Of a stretch of 64,000 nt of DNA, positions 21,271 to 39,496 are shown piece after piece; within the stretch, counting starts at the first letter, position 1; the number at the start of each line of letters is the position of its first letter. Below the pieces are notes generated by a model. It made no database searches. It was not told the DNA's origin and worked only from the letters and a program-made list of their open reading frames with translations. Source of the stretch: Promethearchaeota archaeon (lineage in GTDB: Archaea > Asgardarchaeota > Lokiarchaeia > Sigyniarchaeales > SOKP01); contig JAEOTA010000004.1 in assembly GCA_016840085.1 (NCBI GenBank), forward strand, positions 251,957-315,956. Reading direction: 5' to 3'. The position numbers were made by a program, and so were the translations under genes.

Positions 21271-21942
21271 TTGATTAAAATGGAAGAGCTTAGTGAAAAA
21301 GAAATTAGTAAGCTAAGTATAGATGAGTTAACTCATCTTTTCATGGATGTAATAAATGAACAAAATTTAAAGTTAATACAAGGAATTGAATTTCTTGTAG
21401 AGGAAAATTTTGAAAATTTTGAGAAAAATTTGCATTATGTGATAGATACTAATACAGAAGTCAAGATTAAGAAGAGATTTGAATCTAAAATATTCAAGTC
21501 AAAATTAATGTTTTCAAAAGCAGATAGATTAAAATTATTTAATAAAATAAATGATATTAAAAATATTGGGGAATTTTTAGCCAATAAAATGCTTCTTTAT
21601 AGAGTTGTATTCCCCGATGAAGAATTTAAACTACAAATTTTAAATATTCTTCAATCTTTAAAGATAATCTCCAATGATTTAGCTGATGCCGTCAAATTAA
21701 TAGGTTCTGATTTAAGTAAAGCTCATGACATTTGTGAAAAAATCAAAGATGAAAGAAGAAAAATGAGAAAAGAAGAATGGCAGCTATTAAACCGATTATA
21801 TAACTACGATATGGATTATTTATCCCGAACTTTCATCTATCTTAAAGAATTAATAGAAGATGTAATGATGTTAGCCGATCATATCAAAAACTTTTCAGAA
21901 AACATCCAATTCTTAGCAACTAAATATTTAATTTTCGATTAA
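21271..21942 (+). CDS. DUF47/PhoU-like phosphate transport regulator (divergent)
   Basis: Two helical-bundle repeats; directly upstream of PiT; resembles the DUF47 paralogs. Confidence 0.65.
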   Translation: MIKMEELSEKEISKLSIDELTHLFMDVINEQNLKLIQGIEFLVEENFENFEKNLHYVIDTNTEVKIKKRFESKIFKSKLMFSKADRLKLFNKINDIKNIGEFLANKMLLYRVVFPDEEFKLQILNILQSLKIISNDLADAVKLIGSDLSKAHDICEKIKDERRKMRKEEWQLLNRLYNYDMDYLSRTFIYLKELIEDVMMLADHIKNFSENIQFLATKYLIFD

Positions 21943-21964: not shown

Positions 21965-23002
21965 ATGGCTACTGATATCAATTTAGCTCTAATTTTAGTT
22001 TTAATAGTTATGGCTGTTGGTCTAGCCTTTTCAATAGGGGCTAATGATGAGACTCTTTCAGCATTAATAGGTGCTGGTGTATTAAAATTTAAAATAGCTT
22101 TGATATTAGGAGGAGTAGCTATAGGCGCAGGCATGATTCTTTTTAGCCAAGGTTTCGTACCAGAAACTGTTGGTAAAAGTCTTTTAGGTGAAGGTCTAGA
22201 AGAAAAATATACTAATTATATGCTTTTAACTGTCTTGGTTAGTAGTATATTATGGTTAGTTATTGGTAGTTTTGCTGGGATTCCCCTAAGTAGCACTCAT
22301 TCTTTAATTGGAAGTATTGTTGGAGTAATTGTCGTTTATTCTCTTTTTCAAGGAGGAATTGATCTCAATACCGCATTTAATTATGATAAATTAAGAGATG
22401 TTATTTTAAGTTGGTTCATTTCTCCATTATTAGGATTATTAATAACCTATATATTCTTTAAAATTAGCGCTAAATTATTTTTTTCTCGTTTAAGAGGTCT
22501 TAATCAGATTGAAAAATCTGAAAAATCTTTTAAATGGTTATTACTGTTCGCTGTTTTATTTGCTGAGATTTGGGTTGGGGCTAATTCAGGGGAGGCTTTA
22601 GGAATTCTTTTGAGTCTAAGAGAAAATAATTCTATAAGCAATGGTGAATATATCAGCTTTGTTATTTTATGCGGGATTTTCGCTTTTCTTGGTATTTATT
22701 TTGCTGCAAGATATGTTATCAGAAATTTGGCTTCTCATATGATAGCTACACGCCCTAGTGAGGGATTCATTATTCAAATGAGTTCAGCGTTTATTTTAAT
22801 GATTGCTACTTTATTTGGACTTCCAATTTCACATAGCCATGTGATTGTATTTTGTATTATTGGGTTAAATCTTGCTCAAAAAAAAGAAATAGATTCTAAA
22901 GGGCTAGCTAAGATGGGAGCCTTCTGGGTTCTTACATTTCCAGTTGCTGCCATTTTTGCGGGTTTTTTATATTATGGGCTAAGTATTTTTGGATTTTCGT
23001 GA
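21965..23002 (+). CDS. pit: Inorganic phosphate transporter, PiT family
   Basis: GAND, GIPLSSTH, GANS, GLPISHSH signature motifs. Confidence 0.9.
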   Translation: MATDINLALILVLIVMAVGLAFSIGANDETLSALIGAGVLKFKIALILGGVAIGAGMILFSQGFVPETVGKSLLGEGLEEKYTNYMLLTVLVSSILWLVIGSFAGIPLSSTHSLIGSIVGVIVVYSLFQGGIDLNTAFNYDKLRDVILSWFISPLLGLLITYIFFKISAKLFFSRLRGLNQIEKSEKSFKWLLLFAVLFAEIWVGANSGEALGILLSLRENNSISNGEYISFVILCGIFAFLGIYFAARYVIRNLASHMIATRPSEGFIIQMSSAFILMIATLFGLPISHSHVIVFCIIGLNLAQKKEIDSKGLAKMGAFWVLTFPVAAIFAGFLYYGLSIFGFS

Positions 23003-23076: not shown

Positions 23077-23751
23077 ATGGGATCTTTAATTGAGTATTTA
23101 AAAAGAGAGACAGCTGTTAATGTGTTAGAAAAATCTATTAAACATGCACAAATAGTTCAAGAATGTGTAAAGATGCTAGATGAGGGTTTGCAGATTTTAT
23201 TAAAAGAGAAGGATCTTGAGAAATCTCATGATATTTTTCATAAAGTTGATATTTTAGAAAGAGATGCAGATAAACTAAGAAGAAAAATCCAAAGAGATGT
23301 TACAAGAGGCGAGTTAGATCCTACTGTCCGACAAAACTTATCCCATTTAATTAAAAGAATGGATGATGTTGCAAATTGCAGTACAGGAGTTGCTCGTAGA
23401 ATTAATACGATCCCCTTAAAATTTTGGGAACAGAGTAGCATTGAAACCATTGAGATAATCTTAGAAATGATGAAAAATACAGTTGAATGTGTTCAATTTT
23501 TAGATAAAATAGTAATTGATTTACTTGAAGAAAGAAAACATTTAAAGGATTACGCAAAGAAAATTAATCAACTTGAGCATGAAGTAGATTTACTTAATAT
23601 TAAATTAAGAAAAAACCTTCAAGACACTGATTACGATGTTAACTATTTTACTGTATTCACAGCAGGTAATGTTTTCGATATCATTGAAGCTATATCCGAT
23701 GCAATTGAAGCTGTTGCAGATTATATCATGGTATTATTAATTGGCACTTAA
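23077..23751 (+). CDS. DUF47 family phosphate transport regulator
   Basis: LERDAD.LRR, MDDVAN, LEHEVD, ISDAIEAVAD motifs. Confidence 0.85.
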   Translation: MGSLIEYLKRETAVNVLEKSIKHAQIVQECVKMLDEGLQILLKEKDLEKSHDIFHKVDILERDADKLRRKIQRDVTRGELDPTVRQNLSHLIKRMDDVANCSTGVARRINTIPLKFWEQSSIETIEIILEMMKNTVECVQFLDKIVIDLLEERKHLKDYAKKINQLEHEVDLLNIKLRKNLQDTDYDVNYFTVFTAGNVFDIIEAISDAIEAVADYIMVLLIGT

Positions 23752-23838: not shown

Positions 23839-24843
23839 TTAAACTAAATTGTTTATTATTATCTCAGAGATGTCTCCTGCATACTCGCCTGTGCGGCGTA
23901 TTGATTCTAAGATGTAGCCAATAGCAATCGATAACTCTGTGCTATTTGATGTATTTAAATTAATTTTTTCAGTAATGGATATTAATTTCTTTATAGCTTC
24001 TATATTGTCATTTGCAATTATTATACTTTTTTGGAGCCATGCATCAAGGCTTTTACCTAATAACTCTAATGATAATTTACTTGCCTTTAAAATATCATTA
24101 ATTAACTCTTTATCGATCTTTTTAAAATTTATTAATAATACGTTCTTAGCGATTTTAACAGCATGATCACCTATTCTCTCTAAGAAACGACTTATTTGGT
24201 GGAAATGACTTGCATCTTCTAATGTTATCCCCATTTTTTGACACAGAACAATATCTCTAAGAACAATATGCGACTGACGGCCAATAAGCCAATGCAATCT
24301 ATCTACATCATTATCTCGCTTAATTACTTCATCTGCTAAATTCTTGTCTCCTGTTTCAAGAGCTTTAATTGCATCTTCATGCATGCCTTGGACCAAAATA
24401 TACATTCTTCTTATAGTTTTCTCAAAAGGCATTTCCTTTGGATTAAGCAAATCTTTTATAATTATAATGTTATTAGATTCCTCTACTATTTCAGGTCCTA
24501 TTGCGATTTTGGTAAAATTTACAACACTATCTCTTAAAAATGGTTCAAACTTTTTACTAGACTTAACTGTAATAACACTATATCCCATAATATATGCTCC
24601 TATTAAAAGGCGAAAAAAATAATGTGATTCAGTTATATCATCTACGTCAAAAACCTTGCTTTTTATATAATCTTCAGAATTAATTTTTGGTGTAATGAGT
24701 AAATTCCCATCAGGTTGACTGAGAATTCCAATTGTATCTTTTGGTTCTATTTTATGTTTTTGAATCCATGCTTTTGGTAAACTAATTATAAAAGACGATC
24801 CACCCGTTTGTTGAACTTTTCTTGTTTCTATATTAAACGTCAT
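23839..24843 (-). CDS. phoU: Archaeal phosphate uptake regulator (AbrB-like DNA-binding domain plus PhoU repeats)
   Basis: ETRKVQQTGGSSFIISLPKAW N-terminus; DNDVDRL, LERIGDH, IRRTGEY. Confidence 0.9.
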   Translation of the reverse strand: MTFNIETRKVQQTGGSSFIISLPKAWIQKHKIEPKDTIGILSQPDGNLLITPKINSEDYIKSKVFDVDDITESHYFFRLLIGAYIMGYSVITVKSSKKFEPFLRDSVVNFTKIAIGPEIVEESNNIIIIKDLLNPKEMPFEKTIRRMYILVQGMHEDAIKALETGDKNLADEVIKRDNDVDRLHWLIGRQSHIVLRDIVLCQKMGITLEDASHFHQISRFLERIGDHAVKIAKNVLLINFKKIDKELINDILKASKLSLELLGKSLDAWLQKSIIIANDNIEAIKKLISITEKINLNTSNSTELSIAIGYILESIRRTGEYAGDISEIIINNLV

Positions 24844-24915
24844 TCTAATTCACAATCTCATTGTTTTATGTATATCTATATATAAAAAATATTTTTATAT
24901 TTTTATATAGGTTTT

Positions 24916-24933
24916 CTATATATTCTATATAGA
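24916..24933. promoter_or_regulatory. Putative phosphate-responsive operator CTATATATTCTATATAGA (copy 1, upstream of phoU)
   Basis: Identical 18-mer also at 32030-32047; extra CTATATAGA at 24990-24998. Confidence 0.5.
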
Positions 24934-25194: not shown

Positions 25195-25803
25195 ATGGAT
25201 TTGTATGAAAATTTGCCAGATAAAGAGATTAAGCCTGTAGGAGAACTTTCAAAGAAGTTTTTAGAGTTAGGAATTAAAACCTTTAGAGAAGCATGTGATT
25301 ATGTACACAATATTGAATATGGTTATAATACAAATTATGACGATAAAATGGTTTTTTTTAAAGAAAAAAAGGGTACTTGTACATCTAAACATGCTGTTAT
25401 AGCGGGTCTTGCTGAAGAACTTAACATACCACTTTACAAGCATGTAGGTGTTTATAAATTTACAGAAGAAATCTCAACTGGTACAAATGAAATTCTGAAA
25501 AAATATAATTTACCTTTTGTACCAATGGTGCATTGCTTTTTAGTGTATAAAAATTTCTATTTTGATCTCACAGAAGGAAATTGTGACGGAAAAAATACAA
25601 CAATCGATGAATTTATCTATGAAGAAAAAGTAGATCCTTTTATTAGCAGGAAAGATGAATATTTACTATTTAAAAAAGTGTTAAAAGAATATATCTTACC
25701 ATCGAAAGAAATGGAAGGCATTATCGAAAGAACAGTATTAAAAGCAAGAGAACAATCTATTATTCTTTTAAAAGAAAATATAAAAAAACAGAAGAATTTA
25801 TGA
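25195..25803 (+). CDS. Hypothetical protein, transglutaminase-like fold suspected
   Basis: GTCTSKH...HCFL...FDLT gives a possible Cys-His-Asp triad. Confidence 0.6.
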   Translation: MDLYENLPDKEIKPVGELSKKFLELGIKTFREACDYVHNIEYGYNTNYDDKMVFFKEKKGTCTSKHAVIAGLAEELNIPLYKHVGVYKFTEEISTGTNEILKKYNLPFVPMVHCFLVYKNFYFDLTEGNCDGKNTTIDEFIYEEKVDPFISRKDEYLLFKKVLKEYILPSKEMEGIIERTVLKAREQSIILLKENIKKQKNL

Positions 25804-25842: not shown

Positions 25843-26526
25843 TTAAGGTCTCTTTGCTAATGTTAACATAATAATATAATCAGCAACTTCTTCAGCGTTA
25901 TCACTAATAACTTCTATTAGCGAAATGCTATTATATATTTCAATAGCTAAGAAAGGATTAACATTAGGATTATTTGAAATTAACATCCGGTTTATCGCAA
26001 AATGTATCTCATCACATTGATGCTCCAAAATATTAACCTCTTCTCCCAAATCTCGGATTTCTGACTCTTCAGCGGATAATAAGTTATTAACCATTTTATT
26101 CAGTTTTTTAACTGCTTCAACTGATATTCGTGTCATTTCTAAAATCCTGTTATGGATTTCTTCATCTAGCTTTAGAAATTCTGTATGGTTTATATATATG
26201 AGGATCCTCGCACTTGCATTAGCAGCATTTGCTACATCATCAATTTTTTGCGTAAGATGTATTAAATTCTCACGAATTGTATCGGAAAGTTCTGCTTTTG
26301 AAAGCATATTAAGAATATCCCGTCTCATACCATCAGCTTGATGTTCTAATTCATTAACTCTAAAAAAAACTTTTAATGCAAGATCAATATTTCTCTCCTC
26401 AAGGAGGAATGATATTCCCTTTTCAAATTCGACAACACATTCCAAAATTTTTTGCATATAAACCAATGTTTTGCTTATTGCGCTTTCTTCATTACGGGAT
26501 TGAAAATATTTAAATAATGAACTCAT
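25843..26526 (-). CDS. DUF47 family phosphate transport regulator
   Basis: LEHQADGMRR, IDDVAN, LEHQCD, ISDNAEEVAD; clear paralog of 23077..23751; last gene of the ABC operon. Confidence 0.85.
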   Translation of the reverse strand: MSSLFKYFQSRNEESAISKTLVYMQKILECVVEFEKGISFLLEERNIDLALKVFFRVNELEHQADGMRRDILNMLSKAELSDTIRENLIHLTQKIDDVANAANASARILIYINHTEFLKLDEEIHNRILEMTRISVEAVKKLNKMVNNLLSAEESEIRDLGEEVNILEHQCDEIHFAINRMLISNNPNVNPFLAIEIYNSISLIEVISDNAEEVADYIIMLTLAKRP

Positions 26527-26571
26527 AATAAATCCTCCATCTACTTTTATCTATAATATTATCTATTATTT

Positions 26572-27795
26572 TTATTCTAATTTTAATACTTCTTTTATTA
26601 CTTCATCACCAAGATGCTTGAATACTATCCCCAATTCTTTGGGAAAATATATAGTAACCTCTGAATTCTCTAAAAATGAATTATAAATTTCGTACGTAGC
26701 TGGTCTGGTGACTACAATTATTTTTTCTTTCTTATTTACTTTAATTAATATCTCAAATCGATAGAATACTCCCATAAATTTACGTCGAACTATCTTTCCT
26801 AATAGAGCATTTTTTTTTTCATTTATACGATTACCAAGTCGTATTTTCATTTGATTTGCTCGAACAACTAATAATACTTTATCATTTTGCTGAATTTCAT
26901 TATATAAAGATTCTCTTAAATATCCCGCAAAAATCTCTTTAACACCAATATTTATTGGCATTGGAACCATATCTTCTTGAATTTGAGCGAAAAATTTATC
27001 TCCCTGCTTCGATTTCGAATATATATCCCATAAAGGTTTTTCATTTTTCATACAAATTCCATCAAAATAGTTAATTTCACTCATAAAATTTGCTACAAAA
27101 AGATTTTTAGGTTGATAATATATTTCATAAGGAGTTCCAACTTGGGCGAGTGTTCCCTGATTAATTACCGCTATTCTATCAGCAACCATCATAGCTTCTT
27201 GTTCGTCATTAGTAACATGTACCACTGTTAATTCCAATTCTTTAGATTTTGCCATTAGTTGTAGCTCTTTCCTTAAATTCATTCTAAGTCCCGCATCTAG
27301 GGCTTTTAGAGGTTCATCTAATATTAATAATCTAGTTTGTTCTAGATTTAAAAGAGATCGGCATAAGGCAACTCTTTGTTTCATACCCCCACTCAATTCT
27401 TCTGGTAAAGCATCATTTCTTCCTGTAAGTAAAGTCATCATCAATACTTGATCTACTAATGTTTGAGTTAGTGTAGAATCTCGTGCATGAACCCTTCCAC
27501 TATAAGATATATTCTCAACAATATTCATATGAGGAAATAGAGCATAATTTTCAAACATGAAACCTATATCACGTTCTCCAGCAGTTTTTTTAGTTACATC
27601 TTTACTATCAAACAATATCTTTCCAGAGTCAGGTTTAAGGAGTCCAGCAATAATTTTAAGCAATGTAGTCTTACCTGCTCCTGTAGGACCAAGAATTATA
27701 AAATACTCTTCATCTTTAATCTCAAGAGAAATACTATCAAGAGCTCTAACATTTCTAAAAGATTTCGAAATTTTTTTCAATTCGAGATGTACCAT
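26572..27795 (-). CDS. ABC transporter ATP-binding protein (PotA/CysA/MalK-like) with H-loop His replaced by Asn
   Basis: GPTGAGKT, LSGGMKQR, ILDEP, VTND. Confidence 0.9.
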   Translation of the reverse strand: MVHLELKKISKSFRNVRALDSISLEIKDEEYFIILGPTGAGKTTLLKIIAGLLKPDSGKILFDSKDVTKKTAGERDIGFMFENYALFPHMNIVENISYSGRVHARDSTLTQTLVDQVLMMTLLTGRNDALPEELSGGMKQRVALCRSLLNLEQTRLLILDEPLKALDAGLRMNLRKELQLMAKSKELELTVVHVTNDEQEAMMVADRIAVINQGTLAQVGTPYEIYYQPKNLFVANFMSEINYFDGICMKNEKPLWDIYSKSKQGDKFFAQIQEDMVPMPINIGVKEIFAGYLRESLYNEIQQNDKVLLVVRANQMKIRLGNRINEKKNALLGKIVRRKFMGVFYRFEILIKVNKKEKIIVVTRPATYEIYNSFLENSEVTIYFPKELGIVFKHLGDEVIKEVLKLE

Positions 27796-27817
27796 AATAT
27801 TTTCACCTTATTTGATT

Positions 27818-28963
27818 CTATGATAAAGATAATTCATATAGAAGGTTATCTGGAGCTCTAAATACATGAATGTCATCTTGGTGAATTCCGACTATTAAAT
27901 TTTCTCCTGGAATAAAATTTTCTTCAAAATTTCCTGGCTTAATTGACATAAATTTATCCCCATTATCTAATGTTAAATAAAATCTCTTCGTAGCACCTAT
28001 GAATCTTGATGCTTCCAGAATTGCTTCAAAAAATTGCATGTTTGACCAATCATATTGACTACTTTCAAAATCATAATCTTGAGGAAATAAATATACATCT
28101 TCATAACGAAAAGAAATTACTGTATTATCATCTAAATTAAATTTCTCACTAAAATTATGAGTAATCAATTGAGGGCCCCCTAAACGAATCCAAATTTCCA
28201 TTCTTTCATTATCTAATAATTTTAGGACAAATCCTTGAAGAAAATTGGTCTCTCCCAAAAAATTTGATACAAAAATGCTTTCTGGATTTTCATATAATTC
28301 ATAAGGAGCTCCTATTTGGAGAATTCGTCCCGCTCTCATAATGATGATTTTATCAGCAATAGCCATTGCTTCTTCTTGATTGTGGGTTACATGTATTGCA
28401 GTAAGACCTAAATCTTTAATTAAATTTCGAAGCTCATGACGAAATACTTTTGATACTTTTGGATCTAAGGAACCTAAAGGCTCATCCATAATTAGGATTT
28501 TTGCGCCTGTAGCCATAGCTCTTGCAATTCCTAATTTTTGTAAGCCAGGATTACCAAAAATCGAGGGGTATTCATCAGCATATTGTAATAAATCAACTGT
28601 TTCCAAAGCTTTTTCAGCTTTATCAATAACATATTCATCACTATATCCACGCATTTCTAAACCAAAAGTTACATTTTCCCATACAGTTAAATGATTGAAT
28701 ATTTCAAAATGTTGAAAAATAAATCCCATATCTCTATCTTCAGGAGGAATTTCTCCAACATCTTTTCCCTCTATTAAAACTTCCCCTTTGGTAGGTTTTT
28801 CCAAACCTGCTATCATTCTGAGTGTTGTTGTCTTTCCACATCCGGTAGGACCAATCAAAAAGACATAATCACCATCGTCAATTTTTAAGGAAATATCATC
28901 AACCGCAAGAACTCTCCCTTCATTGAATGTTTTTGTTACATTAATCAATTCTATAGTCGGCAT
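27818..28963 (-). CDS. ABC transporter ATP-binding protein with degenerate signature motif
   Basis: GPTGCGKT, IMDEP, VTHN; FGNPGLQK where LSGGxxQR is expected. Confidence 0.9.
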   Translation of the reverse strand: MPTIELINVTKTFNEGRVLAVDDISLKIDDGDYVFLIGPTGCGKTTTLRMIAGLEKPTKGEVLIEGKDVGEIPPEDRDMGFIFQHFEIFNHLTVWENVTFGLEMRGYSDEYVIDKAEKALETVDLLQYADEYPSIFGNPGLQKLGIARAMATGAKILIMDEPLGSLDPKVSKVFRHELRNLIKDLGLTAIHVTHNQEEAMAIADKIIIMRAGRILQIGAPYELYENPESIFVSNFLGETNFLQGFVLKLLDNERMEIWIRLGGPQLITHNFSEKFNLDDNTVISFRYEDVYLFPQDYDFESSQYDWSNMQFFEAILEASRFIGATKRFYLTLDNGDKFMSIKPGNFEENFIPGENLIVGIHQDDIHVFRAPDNLLYELSLS

Positions 28964-28965
28964 AT

Positions 28966-30612
28966 TTACATTGCCCTCCTTTTGGTCACTACTCGTAATG
29001 CAAAAATTAATATTGCACTAATAATTATGACAACAACACTGGCAAAAATTGCGGAAGCATAAGCATTACTCTCTACCCAATCTACAATTAATACTGGTAC
29101 TGTTCTGATATTGCCCATGACTACAATAGTAGCCCCAGTTTCTCCCAAAGAACGTGTAAATACCATGATACAACCCGCAATTATTCCTTGTTTTATATTT
29201 GGAAGGGTTATTCTTCTGAATACTGTTAAATTAGAAGCGCCTAAAGTACGAGCAGCTTCTTCTACTCCTTTATCTGAAGTTTCTAATACCCCAATAATCG
29301 GTCTAACCATATAGGGAAAAGTAAATGCAATATGTACAAATAAAATCATATAAAATCCAGATTGAAAAAGTCCTAATCCCGCAGGTCCCCAAAATAAGAA
29401 TGTAGCAAATCCTAAAGCTGCCGATGGAATAGCAATAGGGATATCAAGAATGGTGTCAAGAAACGTGATTACTTTACCCCACTTTCTTTTTGTAATTATG
29501 AAAGCAAACGGGATCCCAAAAAGGAGATTAATCACAACGGCTAATGCTCCTATTTCTATTGAATATATAATACTTATATATAGATATGCCCATTTATAAT
29601 CTTGCCCCAGAAATAATTCTGTTATCCAATCTTCGCCTATAATTTGAGTTAAAATATAAAATGCAGGAAGTAAAATAATACTTAGAAGCATTAATATAGC
29701 CAGAATATCTCGTAAATATCTTAGACATTTATGGCTTAAAAAGCGTTCTATCCTTGGCCAGACAGATTTGATGGGAAATCCTGCTTTTCTAGTAAAAATT
29801 TTTATTGAAAATAAGAGTAGAATTGATATGGCAATTAAAATTCCAGCTAATAATGAGGCTGAGGGGAGTTCTAATTGTCTTCTAAATCCAACTATCATAA
29901 TTGGTGCAGTTTCTATCAAACCTGAAAGTATAATTGTAGCACCAGTCTCACCAAGACTTCTTGTAAAAGAGAGTATAGCTCCAGCTATTAATCCCTCTTT
30001 CATCAAAGGTAATGTTATAGTTCGAAATACAGTGAATCCAGAAGCGCCAAGAGTTAGAGCCGCATCTTCATATAATGTAGATGTCTTTTCTAACACAATT
30101 TTCATATTTCGTACGATATATGGAAAAGTGAACACAATATGACCGAATAGAATTAATGAAAATCCCGGTTCGATTCCAAATACTGCCCAAAATAATAGGA
30201 CTGAAAATCCTAACGCACTTGTGGGGACAGCCATGGGTAAATCTACTAATGCATCAAGAAATTTTTTACCTCTAAAGTTGTAGCGAGTTAAAATAATTGA
30301 GATAGGGAAAGCTATTATAATATCTATTCCGACAGCGATAGAAGCAATTGTGAAAGAATATCCAAGGGATTTTAAGATATTAAACCATTGTAAATTACCC
30401 AATAATTCGTCATTAAAAACATCATGGTTTATTGCAGGAATATTCAAAAAAATTGTAGAAAATATGTTAATTATTGGTCCAATAATTACCAAAATAAAAA
30501 AAACTATAGTGATAATATCTAAACTCTTTCTGTATACCAGTTTCGAAAAAAATCTATCTATTTTTAGGCTTAATGATAATTTAATATCCTCTAAGCTTTT
30601 ATTTTTCCTCAT
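28966..30612 (-). CDS. Fused double ABC permease (CysT/CysW/ModB-like halves)
   Basis: Two repeats with DLPMAVP/DIPIAIP, EDAALTLGAS/EEAARTLGAS and FTRSLGETGA. Confidence 0.9.
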   Translation of the reverse strand: MRKNKSLEDIKLSLSLKIDRFFSKLVYRKSLDIITIVFFILVIIGPIINIFSTIFLNIPAINHDVFNDELLGNLQWFNILKSLGYSFTIASIAVGIDIIIAFPISIILTRYNFRGKKFLDALVDLPMAVPTSALGFSVLLFWAVFGIEPGFSLILFGHIVFTFPYIVRNMKIVLEKTSTLYEDAALTLGASGFTVFRTITLPLMKEGLIAGAILSFTRSLGETGATIILSGLIETAPIMIVGFRRQLELPSASLLAGILIAISILLLFSIKIFTRKAGFPIKSVWPRIERFLSHKCLRYLRDILAILMLLSIILLPAFYILTQIIGEDWITELFLGQDYKWAYLYISIIYSIEIGALAVVINLLFGIPFAFIITKRKWGKVITFLDTILDIPIAIPSAALGFATFLFWGPAGLGLFQSGFYMILFVHIAFTFPYMVRPIIGVLETSDKGVEEAARTLGASNLTVFRRITLPNIKQGIIAGCIMVFTRSLGETGATIVVMGNIRTVPVLIVDWVESNAYASAIFASVVVIIISAILIFALRVVTKRRAM

Positions 30613-30663
30613 TTTTTGATGTTTTTTAATTACTTCTTTCTTTAATTTAATAATAATTCTCTT

Positions 30664-31788
30664 TTATTCCGTTGCTTTACAAAGTAGCCAAAAATCAGGA
30701 ATTCTCAGTAATACATTTCCATCAATTGGTGGTTCTAATTTAGGTACATTAAATTCAAGAGCAATTCCATTAGTTTCATAATTGAATACCTCAGGATCTA
30801 AAGGAATTAAAGGATTAATGGGCCTAAAACCATATTGGATAGCAGATTCAACGGTATCAGTTTTATTAAGGAAATTAAGAAAAGCTTCAGCTACAACCCT
30901 TTGCTCAGGAGTTATCCATTCAGCATTTAATATACAAAATGGATGATCACTATATAAGGTTCCTTCTTCTGGATAAATAGCAATAACTCTTCCCCCTGTT
31001 GATGTGCTTGAAATATCCCTTATTAGATTTTCATACAAGAAGACTATATTTAAAGCACTAGGTCCTTCATTTTTCATATAACGGGCTAAAAATCCAGTGG
31101 ATTTTCCATACATCAATGCACTAGATTCAAATTCCCTAAACCATTGCTGATTATCCGTGTTGATAAGTTCTGTCATTGATAAATTTATAGAAGAAATCCC
31201 CGATGCAGCAGATAATGCCATTATGACGCTCATAAACCCCGAATTTGATAACCTAGGATCTGTATGAGCCATTCTAATTTCAACATTTGGATCTACACTT
31301 AAATCATGAATGTCTAAAAATCCTTTAATATTATAAGATTCATTAAAAGATTCCCATGTAGCAATTACTACTGGTGAATAAATTATCTTTACAGCTTCAC
31401 TAATATTTACTATTGGCTCCTGAATTTTCGTTAAATCTCTCCATTTAGTAATTAAGATTGGCAACCAAATGGAACTTGCAGGGCTCCAAATTGTTGGATA
31501 AATTTCATTGTTTAAGATACTGATTATCGAGTCTGAAGAACCATATGGATGCATATCAATGGTTATTTTTTCATCTGGATGGTTATTATGCCACTCTTTC
31601 ATAAAATCTGAATATGCTACAGTCATCCAACTTGCCTTTTCAGAACTATAAATAATACTAATATGTGTTTTTTCCTCTTCCCCTCTAATTATAATACCCG
31701 CGGAAATATTTCCAATAATGAATCCTAAGATAAATATAATTAATAGATTGATTTTATTACGCTTTTTAATTTTACGTAATTTATTCAT
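30664..31788 (-). CDS. Membrane-anchored solute-binding protein (SBP_bac_11-like)
   Basis: SSEK, WSPASS, SPVVIA, TDPRLSNSG, STGFL, YEN, IYPEEGTLYSDHPF motifs. Confidence 0.8.
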   Translation of the reverse strand: MNKLRKIKKRNKINLLIIFILGFIIGNISAGIIIRGEEEKTHISIIYSSEKASWMTVAYSDFMKEWHNNHPDEKITIDMHPYGSSDSIISILNNEIYPTIWSPASSIWLPILITKWRDLTKIQEPIVNISEAVKIIYSPVVIATWESFNESYNIKGFLDIHDLSVDPNVEIRMAHTDPRLSNSGFMSVIMALSAASGISSINLSMTELINTDNQQWFREFESSALMYGKSTGFLARYMKNEGPSALNIVFLYENLIRDISSTSTGGRVIAIYPEEGTLYSDHPFCILNAEWITPEQRVVAEAFLNFLNKTDTVESAIQYGFRPINPLIPLDPEVFNYETNGIALEFNVPKLEPPIDGNVLLRIPDFWLLCKATE

Positions 31789-31816
31789 AATTTACAAAAA
31801 TTTATTAGATTTTCAT

Positions 31817-31915
31817 TTAAATAAAAGACCTAATATAGTTATCCATAAATGTGAATATAATCCCTGATAATAAACCTAAAATTAAAGCAATTATAAATAA
31901 GGTTTGTCTCTTCAT
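31817..31915 (-). CDS. Small single-TM peptide (32 aa) heading the ABC operon
   Basis: Hand translation MKRQTLFIIALILGLLSGIIFTFMDNYIRSFI*; below the ORF-track cutoff; co-oriented and 28 nt upstream of the SBP start. Confidence 0.5.
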   Translation of the reverse strand: MKRQTLFIIALILGLLSGIIFTFMDNYIRSFI

Positions 31916-32011: not shown

Positions 32012-32047
32012 CTATATATCATATATATCCTATATATTCTATATAGA
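32012..32047. promoter_or_regulatory. Four tandem 9-bp units (ctatatatc/atatatatc/ctatatatt/ctatataga), putative operator between the ABC operon and ppa
   Basis: Read directly; last two units equal the 18-mer upstream of phoU. Confidence 0.5.
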
Positions 32048-32167: not shown

Positions 32168-32701
32168 ATGAATCTATGGAGAGATATCCCCCCTGGAGAT
32201 AATCCTCCCGTTCTTTTAAACACTGTTATAGAAGTAATTAGTGGCTCGAGAGATAAGTACGAGTATAAACCTGAATGGGAGGCTTTTGTATTAGATCGAA
32301 TTATCCCTTCATCTGTTGTTTTTCCCATAGAGTATGGTTTTATCCCCCAAACATGGTCAGACGATAATGATCCTCTGGATATAATGGTTTTAAGTTATGA
32401 ACCACTAGAAGTGGGGTGTATTGTAAAGGTTCGAGTTATTGGAGCTTTAGTTATTGAAGATGAACATGGTGATGACCCAAAAATTCTCTCTGTTTTAGTT
32501 AATGATGCTAGATTCAGTGGATATAATGATATTCATGATGTGCATAAACACAAACTAAAGGAAATTCAGGAGTTTTATGAGACATATAAAAGATTAGAAC
32601 CACATAAATGGGTTAAATTTAAAGAATGGAAAAATGCTGAAGGTGCAAAAGTAATTGTAGATTATTCAATTAACCTGTTTAAAAACAAGAAGCTAACTTA
32701 A
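32168..32701 (+). CDS. ppa: Family I inorganic pyrophosphatase
   Basis: DKYEY, LDR, YGFIPQT, DNDPLD, DPKIL, FYETYK motifs. Confidence 0.95.
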   Translation: MNLWRDIPPGDNPPVLLNTVIEVISGSRDKYEYKPEWEAFVLDRIIPSSVVFPIEYGFIPQTWSDDNDPLDIMVLSYEPLEVGCIVKVRVIGALVIEDEHGDDPKILSVLVNDARFSGYNDIHDVHKHKLKEIQEFYETYKRLEPHKWVKFKEWKNAEGAKVIVDYSINLFKNKKLT

Positions 32702-32742: not shown

Positions 32743-34317
32743 CTATATTAAACTTACTCCTATAACACTTTTATGTGGGGTTTTTCCTATAAGTTTCAAT
32801 AAAGTTGGAACAATATCAGTAGTTTTACAAAAGGGAATATGTTTGTAGGGAATTTCTAATGATCCTCCAATTATTAGTGGAACGACCATACATTTTGTAA
32901 GACCAAGATCATGGTCATATATATTCTTATTTTTTTGTTTTCCATGATGAATGTTAAACACAACCGTGCCATCATTACTCAAAATTAAGTCACTACTTCT
33001 AGGATTCTTGAAATGACGCGGTATCAAGTCAGGGAAAATAGGAAAATCAAGATGATGAGTTGCTTCTAGCCATTCATTAATAGAATGATATTTATTATCC
33101 ATTAATCGGCTTGCTATATCATCATTTAAATACCCAAAGATATCATTATCAATATCGTCAGATATATAACGAGTTTTATATTCTTTGCCTCCTCCTTGAT
33201 ATTCAATTACTCCAGATAAAATTTTGTCATTATCATTGATTTTTCTTTTTAAATGAATAACTCCCTTATTATGTGTATTCTCATCATCTCTATAATACAT
33301 CATATGACTTCCTTCTATTCTAAATAATTGCTCTACTAAATTTATTCTTCTTGGCCCATAATTTTTAAGCTCCTTAAGAGTAGGACGAGTCCATTTATAT
33401 TTATATTCTGGATCGGTTAAACCCTTAAAATTGAAAAACCCTACACCCGCATACTCAGAAATATTCATATTTCCCTTTAAATTTTTGCGAGGATGATAAT
33501 GAGTAAGCTCATTTTGTTTAAAAAAATCAGATAAATTACCCACTTTATTTGCTTTATAGTTTCCATGATCAGAAGTGATTGCGATAGCTGTATCTTCTAG
33601 ATACCCTATTTTTTTTAGATTATCAAGTAATATACCAATGACTTTATCAATATGTAATAAATTAAGTTTATAAATGAATGAATCGAATCCATAAGCATGC
33701 ATTAGTAGATCTGAGGATATAAACCATAATAAAGAGCAAATAGGAGGCTCTGAGCTATCAAAAAACCTTTTTGGTGTATTGAAAACTTCAATCAATTTTT
33801 GTACTATTCCTGAATTAGCCCTGATGAGCCTTCGCTTTACATTTGGGAAATACTTCAAAATGAGATAATACATAGCAAGTTTTGTTTTTCTTTCAGGAAA
33901 AAAATAATTTGATCCTCTGCTGATAAATTGGGTTATACTTGCAGTATTTCCATCATTTATCATTTCAAGAATGGTCTTACAATTATTACCAATTTCTTTG
34001 TTAAGTTTATAGATTTGCATGTCTCTAGCAGCGTAACTTCTTAGAATTGGTGGAGAATAATCACGACCCATCCAATTTATTAAGGGAATACCGTGACATA
34101 ATTCTTTTTTATAATTTCCTGTGTAAGTCCCTGTTAAAAGAGATACTTGGGAAGGATACGTGATGGGAGGAAAATCCGTTATACAATTCTCAGAATAAAT
34201 CCCATTTTCCATTAATTTCTTCATATTAGGGAGGAATCCTTTACGTATAAAACTAAAAAAATGCTCTGCTCTAACGTCATCAATAACACAAAGAATAACT
34301 CTGTTTACCTTATTCAT
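32743..34317 (-). CDS. Alkaline phosphatase superfamily protein (nucleotide pyrophosphatase/phosphodiesterase-like)
   Basis: VIDD, PPITYP (Thr nucleophile), DLLMHAYG, TSDHG, YDH, DIVPT motifs. Confidence 0.85.
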   Translation of the reverse strand: MNKVNRVILCVIDDVRAEHFFSFIRKGFLPNMKKLMENGIYSENCITDFPPITYPSQVSLLTGTYTGNYKKELCHGIPLINWMGRDYSPPILRSYAARDMQIYKLNKEIGNNCKTILEMINDGNTASITQFISRGSNYFFPERKTKLAMYYLILKYFPNVKRRLIRANSGIVQKLIEVFNTPKRFFDSSEPPICSLLWFISSDLLMHAYGFDSFIYKLNLLHIDKVIGILLDNLKKIGYLEDTAIAITSDHGNYKANKVGNLSDFFKQNELTHYHPRKNLKGNMNISEYAGVGFFNFKGLTDPEYKYKWTRPTLKELKNYGPRRINLVEQLFRIEGSHMMYYRDDENTHNKGVIHLKRKINDNDKILSGVIEYQGGGKEYKTRYISDDIDNDIFGYLNDDIASRLMDNKYHSINEWLEATHHLDFPIFPDLIPRHFKNPRSSDLILSNDGTVVFNIHHGKQKNKNIYDHDLGLTKCMVVPLIIGGSLEIPYKHIPFCKTTDIVPTLLKLIGKTPHKSVIGVSLI

Positions 34318-35551: not shown

Positions 35552-38500
35552 TTGGTATTTATGCCACCTCCAAAAAAGAAAAAACTTGACGATAAGGAAC
35601 AAACTTCACTTTTTTCCTTTGTTGATGAAAAAAAACAGAAGAAAGATAAATCCCTAGAAAGATCTAAAAAAGAAGAAGTTAAAAAAGATAAAGAAGAAAA
35701 ACTAAAAATTAAGCCTATAGTTATAAAAGAAGAGAAAATTACAAATGCACCATTAACAGAAAAATCAGAAATCCCTCAAGTTTCTTTCTTTAAAGAAAAG
35801 GATGAACCTTTTGGGTTAAAAGAAGGAAATGTAACATTAGAGAAAGTACTCAGAGAAGGAGTAACTTCAAAATATATCCGTTATTTAATCGAAAAGGGAG
35901 AAGTAGTTAAAGACTTAAACAGAGGCTTATTACTTGATGTAGATTACGATGGTGGACAAAACAAGGCATATTGTAAATTCTACGATTTGGATACTGATGA
36001 TATAAAGATGTGGATTGACAATACTGATCATGAACCTTATTGTCTAAGTAAAGAGCCGATCTCAGAATTAGAAAAACTAAACTTAACAAATTATGAAGGA
36101 TTTAAACGATTTGAAAAAATCAAACGTTTTGACTTATTAAGAGATAAAGAGATTGAAATAACAAAGATTTATGGTAAAACACCTACAAATATCGGAGGAT
36201 CTGGCATTAATATCCGTAATATATTAGGTGAAAATGATAAAAAAGCGTGGGAAGCAGATATTCGATATCATTTAAATTATATCTTTGATAGGCAATTAAT
36301 CCCTGGATTAATCTATACTATTAAAAATGGAGAGATAATAGAAGTTAATTTTGAAGAGATTGACGTAAATTCTAAAAAAATGACTGAAGAGCTTCAAATC
36401 TTATTTCAAGATGAAGCTCCAGAAATTCAGGAGTTTTCTGAAAAATTCTTAGACATCTTTATTACTCCTATTCCTGATGCTAAAAGGATGGCTATGGATA
36501 TTGAAGTTATGGTTGGCGAAAGAGATTATAAAATTCCAGATCCACGTTTAGCCAATCAAGAAGTAATTAGTGTGTCATTTGTAGCTACTGATGGGTTAAA
36601 ACTTGTGTATATGCTTGAACGAGAAGGATATACTTTTGAAACATTACATAAAAAATTTCCCTCAGATGCTAAGGTTGTTTTATTTAAATCTGAGAAAGAT
36701 CTATTAATAGAAACTTTCCGGCTTATATGGGAGTATCCTATAATTATTACTTTTAATGGCGATAATTTTGATTTAAATTATTTATTCCATAGAGCAGAGA
36801 AATTAAAAATCGATAGAGACTTAAATCCTATTCATGTAAAACGAGGTTTTGGAATTTTATCAAAAGCAGAATGTGATTTAAGAAAAGGAATACATATTGA
36901 TGTATTTAATCTATTCTTTAACAGAAGTATTTCTGGATATGCATTTGGGGGTGCATATGAGAGTGCATCATTAAATGCTATCAGTGCTGCATTATTAGGA
37001 GAAGAAAAATTTCAGCATGAAGAAATAATTCATGAAATGGAATATGATATCCTCTCTTGGTATAATCTTAAAGATTCAATATTAACTTTGGAGTTAACTA
37101 AATTTAACAATTCTTTAGTCTGGAATTTAATAATCTTATTGTGTAGAATTACAAAAATGCCTATTCATGACATGGTTCGTAGGCAAATCTCAACCTGGAT
37201 ACAAAATATTTTTTATTTTGAGCATCGTAGAAAAAATGCTCTTATTCCTAGGCGGTCAGAGATAAGGGAAGAGAAACCAGGAGGGATTCTTTCTTCTAAA
37301 TCTGATGATGAGAAGTTTTTGGGAGCATATGTCGTACCACCTGTTCCAGGTATCCATTTTGATGTAGTAGTGATGGATTTTGCTTGTTTTTCGGATGATA
37401 CAGAAATTTTGACCAATAATGGATGGTTTACATATAGTGAACTAAAAAATCATAAAGAGAATCAGATAGAAGTAGCAACAGTCAATCCAAAGAATAACAA
37501 TATTGAATATAATGCAGTAAATGAGGTATTTGAATATGATTATAAAGAGAAAATGATTAATTTCAAACAACAAGGAATTGATATATTAGTAACGCCAAAT
37601 CATCGAATGGTTTATAATAAAAGGACAAACGAAAGAGAAAAAACAACTTTTGAAAAAAAAATCCGTATTAAATTGGCTAATGAATTAAAAGAAGATTATC
37701 TTTATGCTATTCCATATACTGGTAATTGGAAAGGTGAAAATAATCTTATACAAATAGGAAATAAAAATTATAATCCATCTGATTTTTTACCTTTTTTGGG
37801 ATGGTTCATTACCGATGGTGGCATATCGGGAAGAAGTGTGAATATCTACCAATCAAAAGAACAAAATTTTGATCATATAAGAAATTCAATAGAAAAACTT
37901 GGATTTCAATATAAAGAATATGAAAGAAATAGAGAGGGTAAGAAATTAGAGAAAATATTTAGTATCCATAATGTTTCATTTAGAGATGATTTAAAAAATT
38001 GGTTTAAAAAAAATCTGGGAATATACAAAAGAAATAGAATTCCACCTGAAATTTTTAAACTAAAAAGAAAGGATCTATTATTACTATTTAAATCTATGAT
38101 TTTAGGAGATAGTAGGTGGTCCGATGATATTTGCTATTCTTTTGATAGTTTAAGTGAAGATTTAGCAAATGATTTTCAAATTCTATGTTTAAAAATAGGT
38201 TATGGATGTAACATCAAAAAAGAAAATATCATTACAGAATTTGATAACAAGAAATATGAAAGAACGAACTATCGTTGTTTAATATCATATGAGAGAAAAA
38301 ATATCATTAGAAAACATCATACAAACTTTGCAGAATATCGGGGAAAAATTTGGTGCGTATCAGTTAATAATGGTACGGTTATTGTTAGAAGAAATGGAAA
38401 ACCTTTTGTTTCAGGTAACAGTCTTTATCCCTCTATTATAAAGGAATATAATCTTTCGTATGAGACAGTCCTATGCCCCCACAAGGATGATGAAGATAAT

Positions 38501-39496
38501 CTTGTGAAAGGAACCCCATATCATATATGTACGCATAAGATGGGAATCTTTGCTTATGTAGTTGGTTTTTTCCGTGATATCAGAGTAAAATATTTTAAAC
38601 CAAAATCAAGTGATAAAACGTTAACAGACAAACAACGTAGTTATTATCTGACCATACAACAAGCGTTAAAAGTCTTTATTAATGGCAGTTATGGAGTTTT
38701 TGGGTCTCAGAATTTCCCCTTGTTTTGTTTACCAGTTGCAGAAAGTACTACAGGTATAGGTCAATATTCAATAAAGCAAACAATTAAAAAAGCCGAAACC
38801 CTTGGAATAAGAGTTTTATACGGAGATACAGATTCTATTTTTCTTTTACATCCTAATAAAGAACAAATGAAGGAAATATCCAATTGGAGTAAAGAAGAGT
38901 TAGATCTTGATTTAGAAGAAGAAAAAACATATCAATTTTTAGCACTTTCTGAACGAAAAAAGAATTACGTTGGAATCTATAAGGATACTCAATATACCGA
39001 TATTAAAGGTTTAGTAGCCAAAAAGAAAAACACACCTGAATTTATCAAAAAAATTTTCAGTGAAATGATTAAAATATTGAAGCAAATTAAAAATAATGAA
39101 GATTTTTTGAAAGCAAAGGATCAAATTATAGGAATTGTAAGAGAGAATTTAAAGAAAATTGGTAAACCAGATACGTTTACCATAGAGGATTATGCTATAA
39201 ATATAGGTTTACAAAAAGATCTGAAGAATTACACTAAAGTTATTCCTCAACATGTTCGAGCTGCAATAGAATTAAGAGATACTACTGGAAAAGAATATCA
39301 AAAAGGTGAAACAATTAGTTTTATAAAGAGTAAAGGGGCAACCGGAGCAAAAGCAATTGAATTAGCCAAACTTCAAGATATAGATACTAAAAAATATAAA
39401 GAACTTTTAAAATCTGCTTTAGAACAGGTTTTAGATGCTTTAGGTATTACATTTGAAGAAATTCGAGGTATAAAAAAGATGGATGCTTTCTTTTAA
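35552..39496 (+). CDS. polB: Family B DNA polymerase (PolB1 type) containing an intein
   Basis: Exonuclease DIE, FNGDNFD and YNLKD; DFA/SLYPSII, KVFINGSYG, YGDTDS, KKNY; N-domain LLLDVDYDG..KAYCKFYD resembles crenarchaeal PolB1. Confidence 0.95.
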   Translation: MVFMPPPKKKKLDDKEQTSLFSFVDEKKQKKDKSLERSKKEEVKKDKEEKLKIKPIVIKEEKITNAPLTEKSEIPQVSFFKEKDEPFGLKEGNVTLEKVLREGVTSKYIRYLIEKGEVVKDLNRGLLLDVDYDGGQNKAYCKFYDLDTDDIKMWIDNTDHEPYCLSKEPISELEKLNLTNYEGFKRFEKIKRFDLLRDKEIEITKIYGKTPTNIGGSGINIRNILGENDKKAWEADIRYHLNYIFDRQLIPGLIYTIKNGEIIEVNFEEIDVNSKKMTEELQILFQDEAPEIQEFSEKFLDIFITPIPDAKRMAMDIEVMVGERDYKIPDPRLANQEVISVSFVATDGLKLVYMLEREGYTFETLHKKFPSDAKVVLFKSEKDLLIETFRLIWEYPIIITFNGDNFDLNYLFHRAEKLKIDRDLNPIHVKRGFGILSKAECDLRKGIHIDVFNLFFNRSISGYAFGGAYESASLNAISAALLGEEKFQHEEIIHEMEYDILSWYNLKDSILTLELTKFNNSLVWNLIILLCRITKMPIHDMVRRQISTWIQNIFYFEHRRKNALIPRRSEIREEKPGGILSSKSDDEKFLGAYVVPPVPGIHFDVVVMDFACFSDDTEILTNNGWFTYSELKNHKENQIEVATVNPKNNNIEYNAVNEVFEYDYKEKMINFKQQGIDILVTPNHRMVYNKRTNEREKTTFEKKIRIKLANELKEDYLYAIPYTGNWKGENNLIQIGNKNYNPSDFLPFLGWFITDGGISGRSVNIYQSKEQNFDHIRNSIEKLGFQYKEYERNREGKKLEKIFSIHNVSFRDDLKNWFKKNLGIYKRNRIPPEIFKLKRKDLLLLFKSMILGDSRWSDDICYSFDSLSEDLANDFQILCLKIGYGCNIKKENIITEFDNKKYERTNYRCLISYERKNIIRKHHTNFAEYRGKIWCVSVNNGTVIVRRNGKPFVSGNSLYPSIIKEYNLSYETVLCPHKDDEDNLVKGTPYHICTHKMGIFAYVVGFFRDIRVKYFKPKSSDKTLTDKQRSYYLTIQQALKVFINGSYGVFGSQNFPLFCLPVAESTTGIGQYSIKQTIKKAETLGIRVLYGDTDSIFLLHPNKEQMKEISNWSKEELDLDLEEEKTYQFLALSERKKNYVGIYKDTQYTDIKGLVAKKKNTPEFIKKIFSEMIKILKQIKNNEDFLKAKDQIIGIVRENLKKIGKPDTFTIEDYAINIGLQKDLKNYTKVIPQHVRAAIELRDTTGKEYQKGETISFIKSKGATGAKAIELAKLQDIDTKKYKELLKSALEQVLDALGITFEEIRGIKKMDAFF
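37385..38419 (+). mobile_element. Intein (345 aa) with LAGLIDADG homing endonuclease in polymerase motif A
   Basis: Splits DFA|SLYPSII; starts CFSDDTEILT; block B VTPNHR; LGWFITDG and KSMILGD motifs; ends VSGN followed by Ser+1. Confidence 0.93.

Follow-up and report, generated by a model that had tools for sequence, protein, structure and literature searches.

A candidate orthophosphate ABC importer of Asgard archaea, built like a sulfate importer and distinct from PstSCAB

The operon described here lies in a 64,000-nucleotide (nt) stretch of contig JAEOTA010000004.1 of a Promethearchaeota archaeon (Lokiarchaeia; assembly GCA_016840085.1), called the window below. Its six co-oriented minus-strand genes, separated by gaps of 2-51 nt, encode a 32-aa membrane peptide, a solute-binding protein (SBP), a fused double permease, two ATPases and a DUF47 protein. 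Having an SBP, two BPD_transp_1 domains and ATP-binding cassette (ABC) ATPases encoded in one conserved operon, the system is a type I ABC importer. That it imports orthophosphate is slightly better than an even guess; it is kin to the sulfate/molybdate importers and stands apart from PstSCAB, the ABC route that textbooks give for this anion. More tentatively, it could be a second phosphate ABC importer, independently evolved and related to the sulfate-transporter lineage. Such a system would have an ATPase heterodimer with only one active site, a PhoU-like regulator of its own, a small membrane subunit and a phosphate box of archaeal type, and its SBP would indicate that the many bacterial SBP-vWA proteins sharing its pocket act as phosphate sensors. 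The architecture had been described from the letters alone (the sequence-only reading), and the coordinates of the open reading frames (ORFs) and the Pfam and NCBIfam matches agree with that description (Table 1). A literature search, mostly without subscription papers, found no account of the Asgard importer.

Results

The importer operon probably belongs to the phosphate regulon, and the strongest evidence for this is a promoter box of 18 bp (consensus CCTATATATTCTATATAG), the motif of which was trained only on 53 importer-operon promoters of the source genome's family. When the 4.68-Mb genome was scanned, the operon promoter was the best site and the AbrB-PhoU promoter the second, and column-shuffled motifs gave no site of at least 22 in such a scan. 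Boxes scoring at least 18 precede 9/16 AbrB-PhoU genes, compared with 6/254 other genes, and almost all of these six are divergent neighbours that share the operon promoter. Among 19 held-out pst regions of the same family, the score reaches at least 18 in 12 and at least 15 in 15, the box being located either ahead of pstS or in the pstS-pstC interval, and the box-bearing regions include three genomes without the SBP (G138, G267, G104). As a background, 3 of 1325 equal-sized pieces of the source genome reach at least 17. Such a promoter element, common to pst and PhoU genes, was found in the source genome's family only. We infer that the AbrB-PhoU fusion is a candidate DNA-binding regulator of the box; it would control transcription of the operon through it, jointly with pst where pst exists.

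The third-best site in the genome (score 20.9; L228 2872-2890, G000 C14:8371-8389) follows an alanyl-tRNA synthetase gene, with a calcineurin-like phosphoesterase gene and a NUDIX gene about 600 nt downstream, and may be a further regulon member or a chance occurrence. A scan for sigma-70 promoters, a bacterial model not relevant for archaea, gave no excess, and the only RNA run for the MK-D1 locus consists of one flat contig across the whole stretch, probably DNA.

Of 301 sampled Asgard genomes, 81 carry the SBP, nearly always in single copy. In regard to gene linkage, maps of about 140 loci show that the order SBP-permease-ATPase-ATPase persists where SBP identity has dropped to about 35%; it occurs in Bathyarchaeia as well as in Loki-, Heimdall- and other Asgard groups, and the module is present in the complete genomes of Promethearchaeum syntrophicum MK-D1 (L142) and Ca. 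Lokiarchaeum ossiferum (L143). Neighbouring DUF47, PhoU, Pit, pyrophosphatase (ppa) and phosphodiesterase genes were counted in non-redundant scorable loci, 49 near (SBP identity at least 60%) and 38 distant, with truncated loci that show no DUF47/PhoU-type neighbour left unscored, so that the counts are slightly inflated. DUF47 adjoins the importer in all 49 near loci and in 32 of the 38 distant ones (34 when PhoU is counted as well); it can be upstream, downstream, divergent or convergent, and the linkage reaches 35% SBP identity and Bathyarchaeia. The sequence-only reading had taken the system for a non-Pst importer in a phosphorus context, a claim that orthologous operons without phosphate genes would contradict; it is upheld by DUF47 or PhoU adjacent in 83/87 scorable loci, and by the box common to pst regions in the source genome's family. 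Furthermore, Pit is nearby in 31/49 near loci, and the importer has a pst operon as its neighbour at several loci from two families (L038, L049, L052, L079, L082, L089).

Several loci deviate in gene structure. In one lineage (L072-L074) the permease is split into two separate genes with no adjacent ATPase pair, a CysA-like ATPase being about 6.5 kb and DUF47 about 13 kb away, and in one genome (L133) SBP and permease are read as a single 896-aa ORF, by fusion or assembly error. In Lokiarchaeial pst operons (L038, L049, L052, L082), PstC and PstA are often fused into one ORF of 660-800 aa.

According to PMC9239043, DUF47 regulates phosphate transport and is paired with pit. The acidic motifs of the operon DUF47 are invariant, and a phylogenetic tree groups the Lokiarchaeia operon proteins as sister to a Pit-linked DUF47 clade (support 98/97). 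To our knowledge, the known DUF47 partners act on orthophosphate transporters. The operon protein is likely a regulator of the importer and, by analogy with PhoU, it would adjust uptake to internal phosphate. Complex prediction of DUF47 with both ATPases scored 0.72, or 0.70 with ATPase 2 replaced, and partner-replaced controls 0.00; these scores give no verdict and were not used as evidence.

The structural model of the SBP is confident (pLDDT 92.4). Foldseek placed sulfate-binding proteins first (5um2, E 5e-13) and then AfuA, while in an exhaustive structural aligner TbpA (Z 26.7) and Sbp (1sbp, Z 26.4, rmsd 3.8, 293 aligned) tie, followed by STM0429 (Z 25.5), with VcA0625 at Z 23.6; phosphoester-binding proteins (AfuA, TbpA, VcA0625) thus rank just beside Sbp. 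A single-sequence search of the PDB gave no match. Sbp of E. coli aligns only weakly (probability 27, E 7e-4), with S84, S181-N182-S183-G184 and Y252-E253 falling on the anion site of Sbp, which we take to be S45, S130-G131-G132-A133 and W192, and S49 falling on D11 when the alignment is extended without gaps. Since these positions are invariant or nearly so in the family alignment, the ligand is likely a small tetrahedral anion. Sbp has no equivalent of the invariant residues E50, K51, H175 and H282; E50 and the equally invariant E253, which is common to Sbp, are aligned in or beside the pocket motifs. A carboxylate and a lysine (E50/K51) next to the anion site would suit protonated phosphate. 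In the mechanism that we propose, the SBP would grip the tetrahedral anion between its lobes through backbone and serine contacts as in the sulfate-binding protein, the four extra residues near the anion site would suit protonated phosphate, and the membrane-anchored SBP would dock onto the fused permease.

That this type of SBP is often fused to vWA domains, as the sequence-only reading stated, is borne out by the nearest non-archaeal relatives, which include many SBP-vWA fusions (JGI name 'Ca-activated chloride channel family protein'). These bacterial proteins belong to the same SBP family and keep the putative pocket residues: among about 80 long homologues, of which the examined ones are vWA fusions, E253 is kept in 80/80, K51 in 73/78, S181 in 76/80 and S84 in 75/78. 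They have vWA domains and, in four short contexts, no permease, whereas the Asgard operon has no vWA and a full importer. TelA/XpaC neighbours, a context suggested for SBP-vWA proteins, were absent from the four short contigs, and no paper on them was found. Three apparently bacterial loci (L045, L046, L230) hold a stand-alone SBP of the family directly followed by an SBP-vWA fusion, a Ser/Thr kinase gene lies upstream in L229, and in P0153 an OpuAC domain is fused to SBP-vWA.

The best NCBIfam match of the permease is the sulfate permease (5.6e-73), followed by ModB (3e-63), CysT (8e-61) and WtpB (1e-59), with PstC at only 7e-24; it is 31-40% identical to CysU/CysW and 70-93% conserved within the source genome's family. 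The ATPases are 38-43% identical to CysA compared with 26-28% to PstB, and score best against PhnT2/PotA models, under the cut-off. A motif survey of 82 sequence pairs found Walker B, Q-loop and H-loop preserved in ATPase 1, with Walker A intact wherever aligned and a non-canonical signature motif in 80/82; ATPase 2 has an intact signature and mostly E in place of the Q-loop Q, with a further loss of either the H-loop H (to N, as in the source genome) or, in other lineages, the Walker B glutamate. In an ABC transporter each ATP site is formed by the Walker motifs of one subunit and the signature of its partner; the defects are therefore all confined to one site, which implies one active and one dead site. 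The heterodimer would hydrolyse ATP only at the site made of the ATPase 1 Walker A/B, Q and H loops and the ATPase 2 signature. Asymmetry of this kind occurs in exporters and among fused sugar-importer ATPases, but is, as far as we know, unusual for the CysA/PotA type.

The 32-aa peptide has no Pfam match. It is a real gene and not a chance ORF, judging by the homologous hydrophobic ORF of 32-46 codons, with a conserved C-terminus and in some cases a TTG or GTG start, that stands ahead of the SBP at most Lokiarchaeia loci where the upstream DNA is long enough, MK-D1 among them; none was found in the mapped loci of other lineages. It is probably an accessory subunit. In Heimdall-like loci (L057, L059, L061, L064, L068, L070, L078) the small peptide is absent and the SBP has an extra C-terminal membrane helix, which may do the same job.

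The phosphate context noted in the sequence-only reading is present, but stronger elements of the same window had been missed, namely Pit, a second DUF47, AbrB-PhoU, the alkaline-phosphatase-superfamily gene and the promoter box. The divergent placement of ppa was seen correctly, but its role as a conserved operon partner is rejected, with only one other locus (L089) among those mapped showing it adjacent. The alkaline-phosphatase-superfamily phosphodiesterase falls within the locus in 21/49 near and in no distant loci.

Table 1. Positions of the importer operon, the box sites and the phosphate-related neighbours in the window
Feature	Position	Strand	Remarks
Small membrane peptide	31817-31915	-	32-aa ORF; first operon gene; single helix
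SBP	30664-31788	-	374 aa; PF13531 E 1.7e-12; membrane-anchored
Fused double permease	28966-30612	-	548 aa; two PF00528 (BPD_transp_1) domains
ATPase 1	27818-28963	-	ABC_tran; TOBE_2 6.6e-5, barely over its cut-off
ATPase 2	26572-27795	-	ABC_tran
DUF47 (PhoU-like)	25843-26526	-	PF01865 1e-23; last operon gene
Candidate phosphate-regulon box	32020-32046	.	Between operon and ppa; CTATATA units, 10-bp period; score 27.9 (best site at 32029) and overlapping site 20.1
Box upstream of AbrB-PhoU	24915-24932	.	Score 25.4; outside training set
Pit/PHO4 phosphate transporter	21965-23002	+	PF01384 1e-50
Pit-linked DUF47	23077-23751	+	Window context
AbrB-PhoU fusion	23839-24843	-	PF04014 and PF01895
Inorganic pyrophosphatase (ppa)	32168-32701	+	Divergent from operon; linkage not conserved
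Alkaline-phosphatase-superfamily phosphodiesterase	32743-34317	-	PF01663

Three further ORFs of the window are of note. A 222-aa ORF upstream of Pit (21271-21942), kept with Pit across the source genome's family, has no Pfam match and was not assigned as a third DUF47, its full-length likeness being weak (E 0.065) and its tree branch very long; its product is possibly a highly diverged PhoU-fold protein. A transglutaminase-like ORF (25195-25803; PF01841 E 1e-3, under the cut-off), 67-82% conserved, recurs inside the phosphate cluster in the same family. The family B DNA polymerase at 35552-39496 has 1314 aa compared with about 980 aa in most relatives, and its translation suggests an intein insertion near residues 610-960.

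Discussion

The operon would work like a Pst-PhoU system yet fails Pst membership, and it is built like a sulfate importer yet fails the family cut-offs, the ATPase arrangement and the context of one. With PstSCAB-PhoU it shares the type I ABC plan, a PhoU-fold partner, the pst-region box in one family and frequent genomic neighbourhood, whereas its partner is DUF47 and not canonical PhoU, and its ATPases are longer and CysA/PotA-like, not PstB-like. The SBP is not of the PstS family, with no PF12849 or PstS model match (true Asgard PstS matches both) and an hhalign probability of 0.4 to E. coli PstS, and the permease fails the Pst cut-offs (PstC 84 bits vs 196, PstA 71 vs 193). The sulfate importer, Sbp/CysP-CysT(U)-CysW-CysA, resembles it in the best SBP fold match, the serine/glycine motif of the anion site, two unlike permease halves nearest CysT/CysW and CysA-like ATPases. 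On the other hand, the Asgard SBP is about 12% identical to Sbp and has the extra E50, K51, H175 and H282, the permeases are fused, DUF47 and the small peptide are added, the gene context is that of phosphate, and two unlike ATPases, with one dead site between them, replace a single homodimer. No NCBIfam sulfate-binding model matches the SBP, and the permease stays under the CysT/CysW equivalog cut-offs (CysT 206 vs 246, CysW 181 vs 329), passing the broader TIGR00969 narrowly with both halves summed (245.7 vs 240).

ModABC, WtpABC and TupABC have a similar oxyanion-type permease, with the ModB cut-off passed (213 vs 182.6 bits, two halves summed), but the Asgard operon has a double permease and two ATPases, its SBP falls under all ModA/WtpA models, and separate Tup/Wtp-like systems exist in the same genomes; the ModABC/WtpABC combination of a ModA/WtpA-family SBP with one homodimeric permease was not found. 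Importers of the AfuABC/TbpA/PhnS type share the structural SBP cluster and, in ThiP and PhnU2, a fused double permease, but SBP identity is 11-14%, the permease is far under the ThiP/PhnU2 models and no matching catabolic genes are present. The DUF47-Pit pair is close through its sister DUF47 clade, whereas the operon DUF47 goes with an ABC importer.

The source genome (98.8% complete) has two Pit genes and a separate TupABC-like importer on contig C49, with no recognisable PstC or PstS and no Na/Pi cotransporter. Four genomes of 92-96% completeness (G006, G017, G076, G112) have the importer and no Pst, Pit or Na/Pi transporter was found in them; the same negative holds for the tested L072-L074 genomes. 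Such gap-filling is weak evidence, because three genomes (G023, G029, G119; G023 being one contig and 97% complete) show neither Pst, Pit, Na/Pi nor the new importer, either through a further phosphate route or through missed genes. G023 still has three DUF47 genes, and its PF12849 match was rejected as PstS, since NCBIfam shows it to be TupA-like.

These three genomes also count against orthophosphate import, together with several other observations. The four gap-filling genomes are mostly those without adjacent DUF47 (L067, L072-L074). Mutual exclusion with Pst was not seen, PstC being present in 28/81 SBP-positive genomes, and in 14/31 vs 9/38 within the source genome's family. The loci are kin and not independent, and de novo motifs from Heimdall-like (f7) and Promethearchaeaceae (f2) promoters failed to transfer to their pst regions (sets of 14 and 9). 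The best known-ligand structural, profile and Atlas matches of the SBP are sulfate-binding proteins, PstS is outside the top 50 of both structural searches, and the role given to E50/K51 is read from a sequence alignment. The importer is neither a strict Pst replacement nor required.

The phosphorus ligand proposed in the sequence-only reading is backed by the phosphorus context; its pyrophosphate or polyphosphate version leaned on ppa and is poorly supported. It is nevertheless conceivable, though rather unlikely, that the system takes up a different phosphorus anion (sugar phosphate, nucleotide monophosphate, phosphonate, phosphite, pyrophosphate) in a phosphate-starvation response, and that the neighbouring phosphodiesterase or ppa frees phosphate. 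Any phosphorus source is compatible with the regulon evidence, the top SBP folds include AfuA, VcA0625, TbpA and STM0429, the ATPases are best against the PhnT2/PotA models (under cut-off), the phosphodiesterase is present in a good part of the near loci, and genomes with both Pst and importer would gain more from a different substrate. However, ppa adjoins the operon at a single further locus, no distant locus has the phosphodiesterase, the phosphodiesterase genes lack the box in their upstream DNA (0/27), none of the C-P lyase, phosphonatase and phosphite dehydrogenase-like families is a repeated neighbour of the operon in different lineages, and the DUF47 pairing with pit and with orthophosphate transporters speaks for orthophosphate.

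Sulfate is a live rival, since the closest solved relatives of the SBP are sulfate-binding proteins. A divergent sulfate/thiosulfate importer, with DUF47 as a general anion-transport regulator, would account for Sbp as top Foldseek and profile match, for the aligned anion site and for the CysU/CysW- and CysA-like subunits; some carriers (G207, G213, G026) have sulfate activation genes elsewhere in the genome, and some Pit-family proteins transport sulfate. We consider it improbable, as no sulfur-assimilation neighbour recurs in the locus maps, no Sat, CysD or true APS kinase, and hence no recognisable sulfate activation, was found in the source genome, the box is common to pst and AbrB-PhoU, and the SBP is so remote from Sbp and from the sulfate-binding models. 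Still less probable is that the system is mainly a phosphate sensor or slow transceptor signalling through DUF47 and AbrB-PhoU, or a carrier of another solute: the conserved dead ATPase site, the constant DUF47 partner and the same SBP domain occurring with vWA domains and beside a kinase gene, with no permease in the short contigs seen, would fit, but the importer is complete, one ATP site is fully consensus and the permease is well conserved within the family. A molybdate/tungstate importer, suggested by the ModB score and weak ModA similarity, is very unlikely given separate TupABC-like (source genome) or WtpA-like (G006) systems, no Mo/W-cofactor context recurring in archaeal loci, and the phosphate-type linkage and box.

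If orthophosphate is indeed the substrate, a second ABC route for it on a sulfate-binding scaffold would be a natural test of phosphate/sulfate discrimination, the role of DUF47 would extend from Pit to an ABC transporter, and a large uncharacterised SBP family (1,519 clusters with E no higher than 1e-10) would receive its first ligand. The operon is present in the cultured MK-D1 and Ca. L. ossiferum, and a soluble SBP is easily expressed and screened. For some Asgard archaea without Pst, the importer would explain their phosphorus supply.

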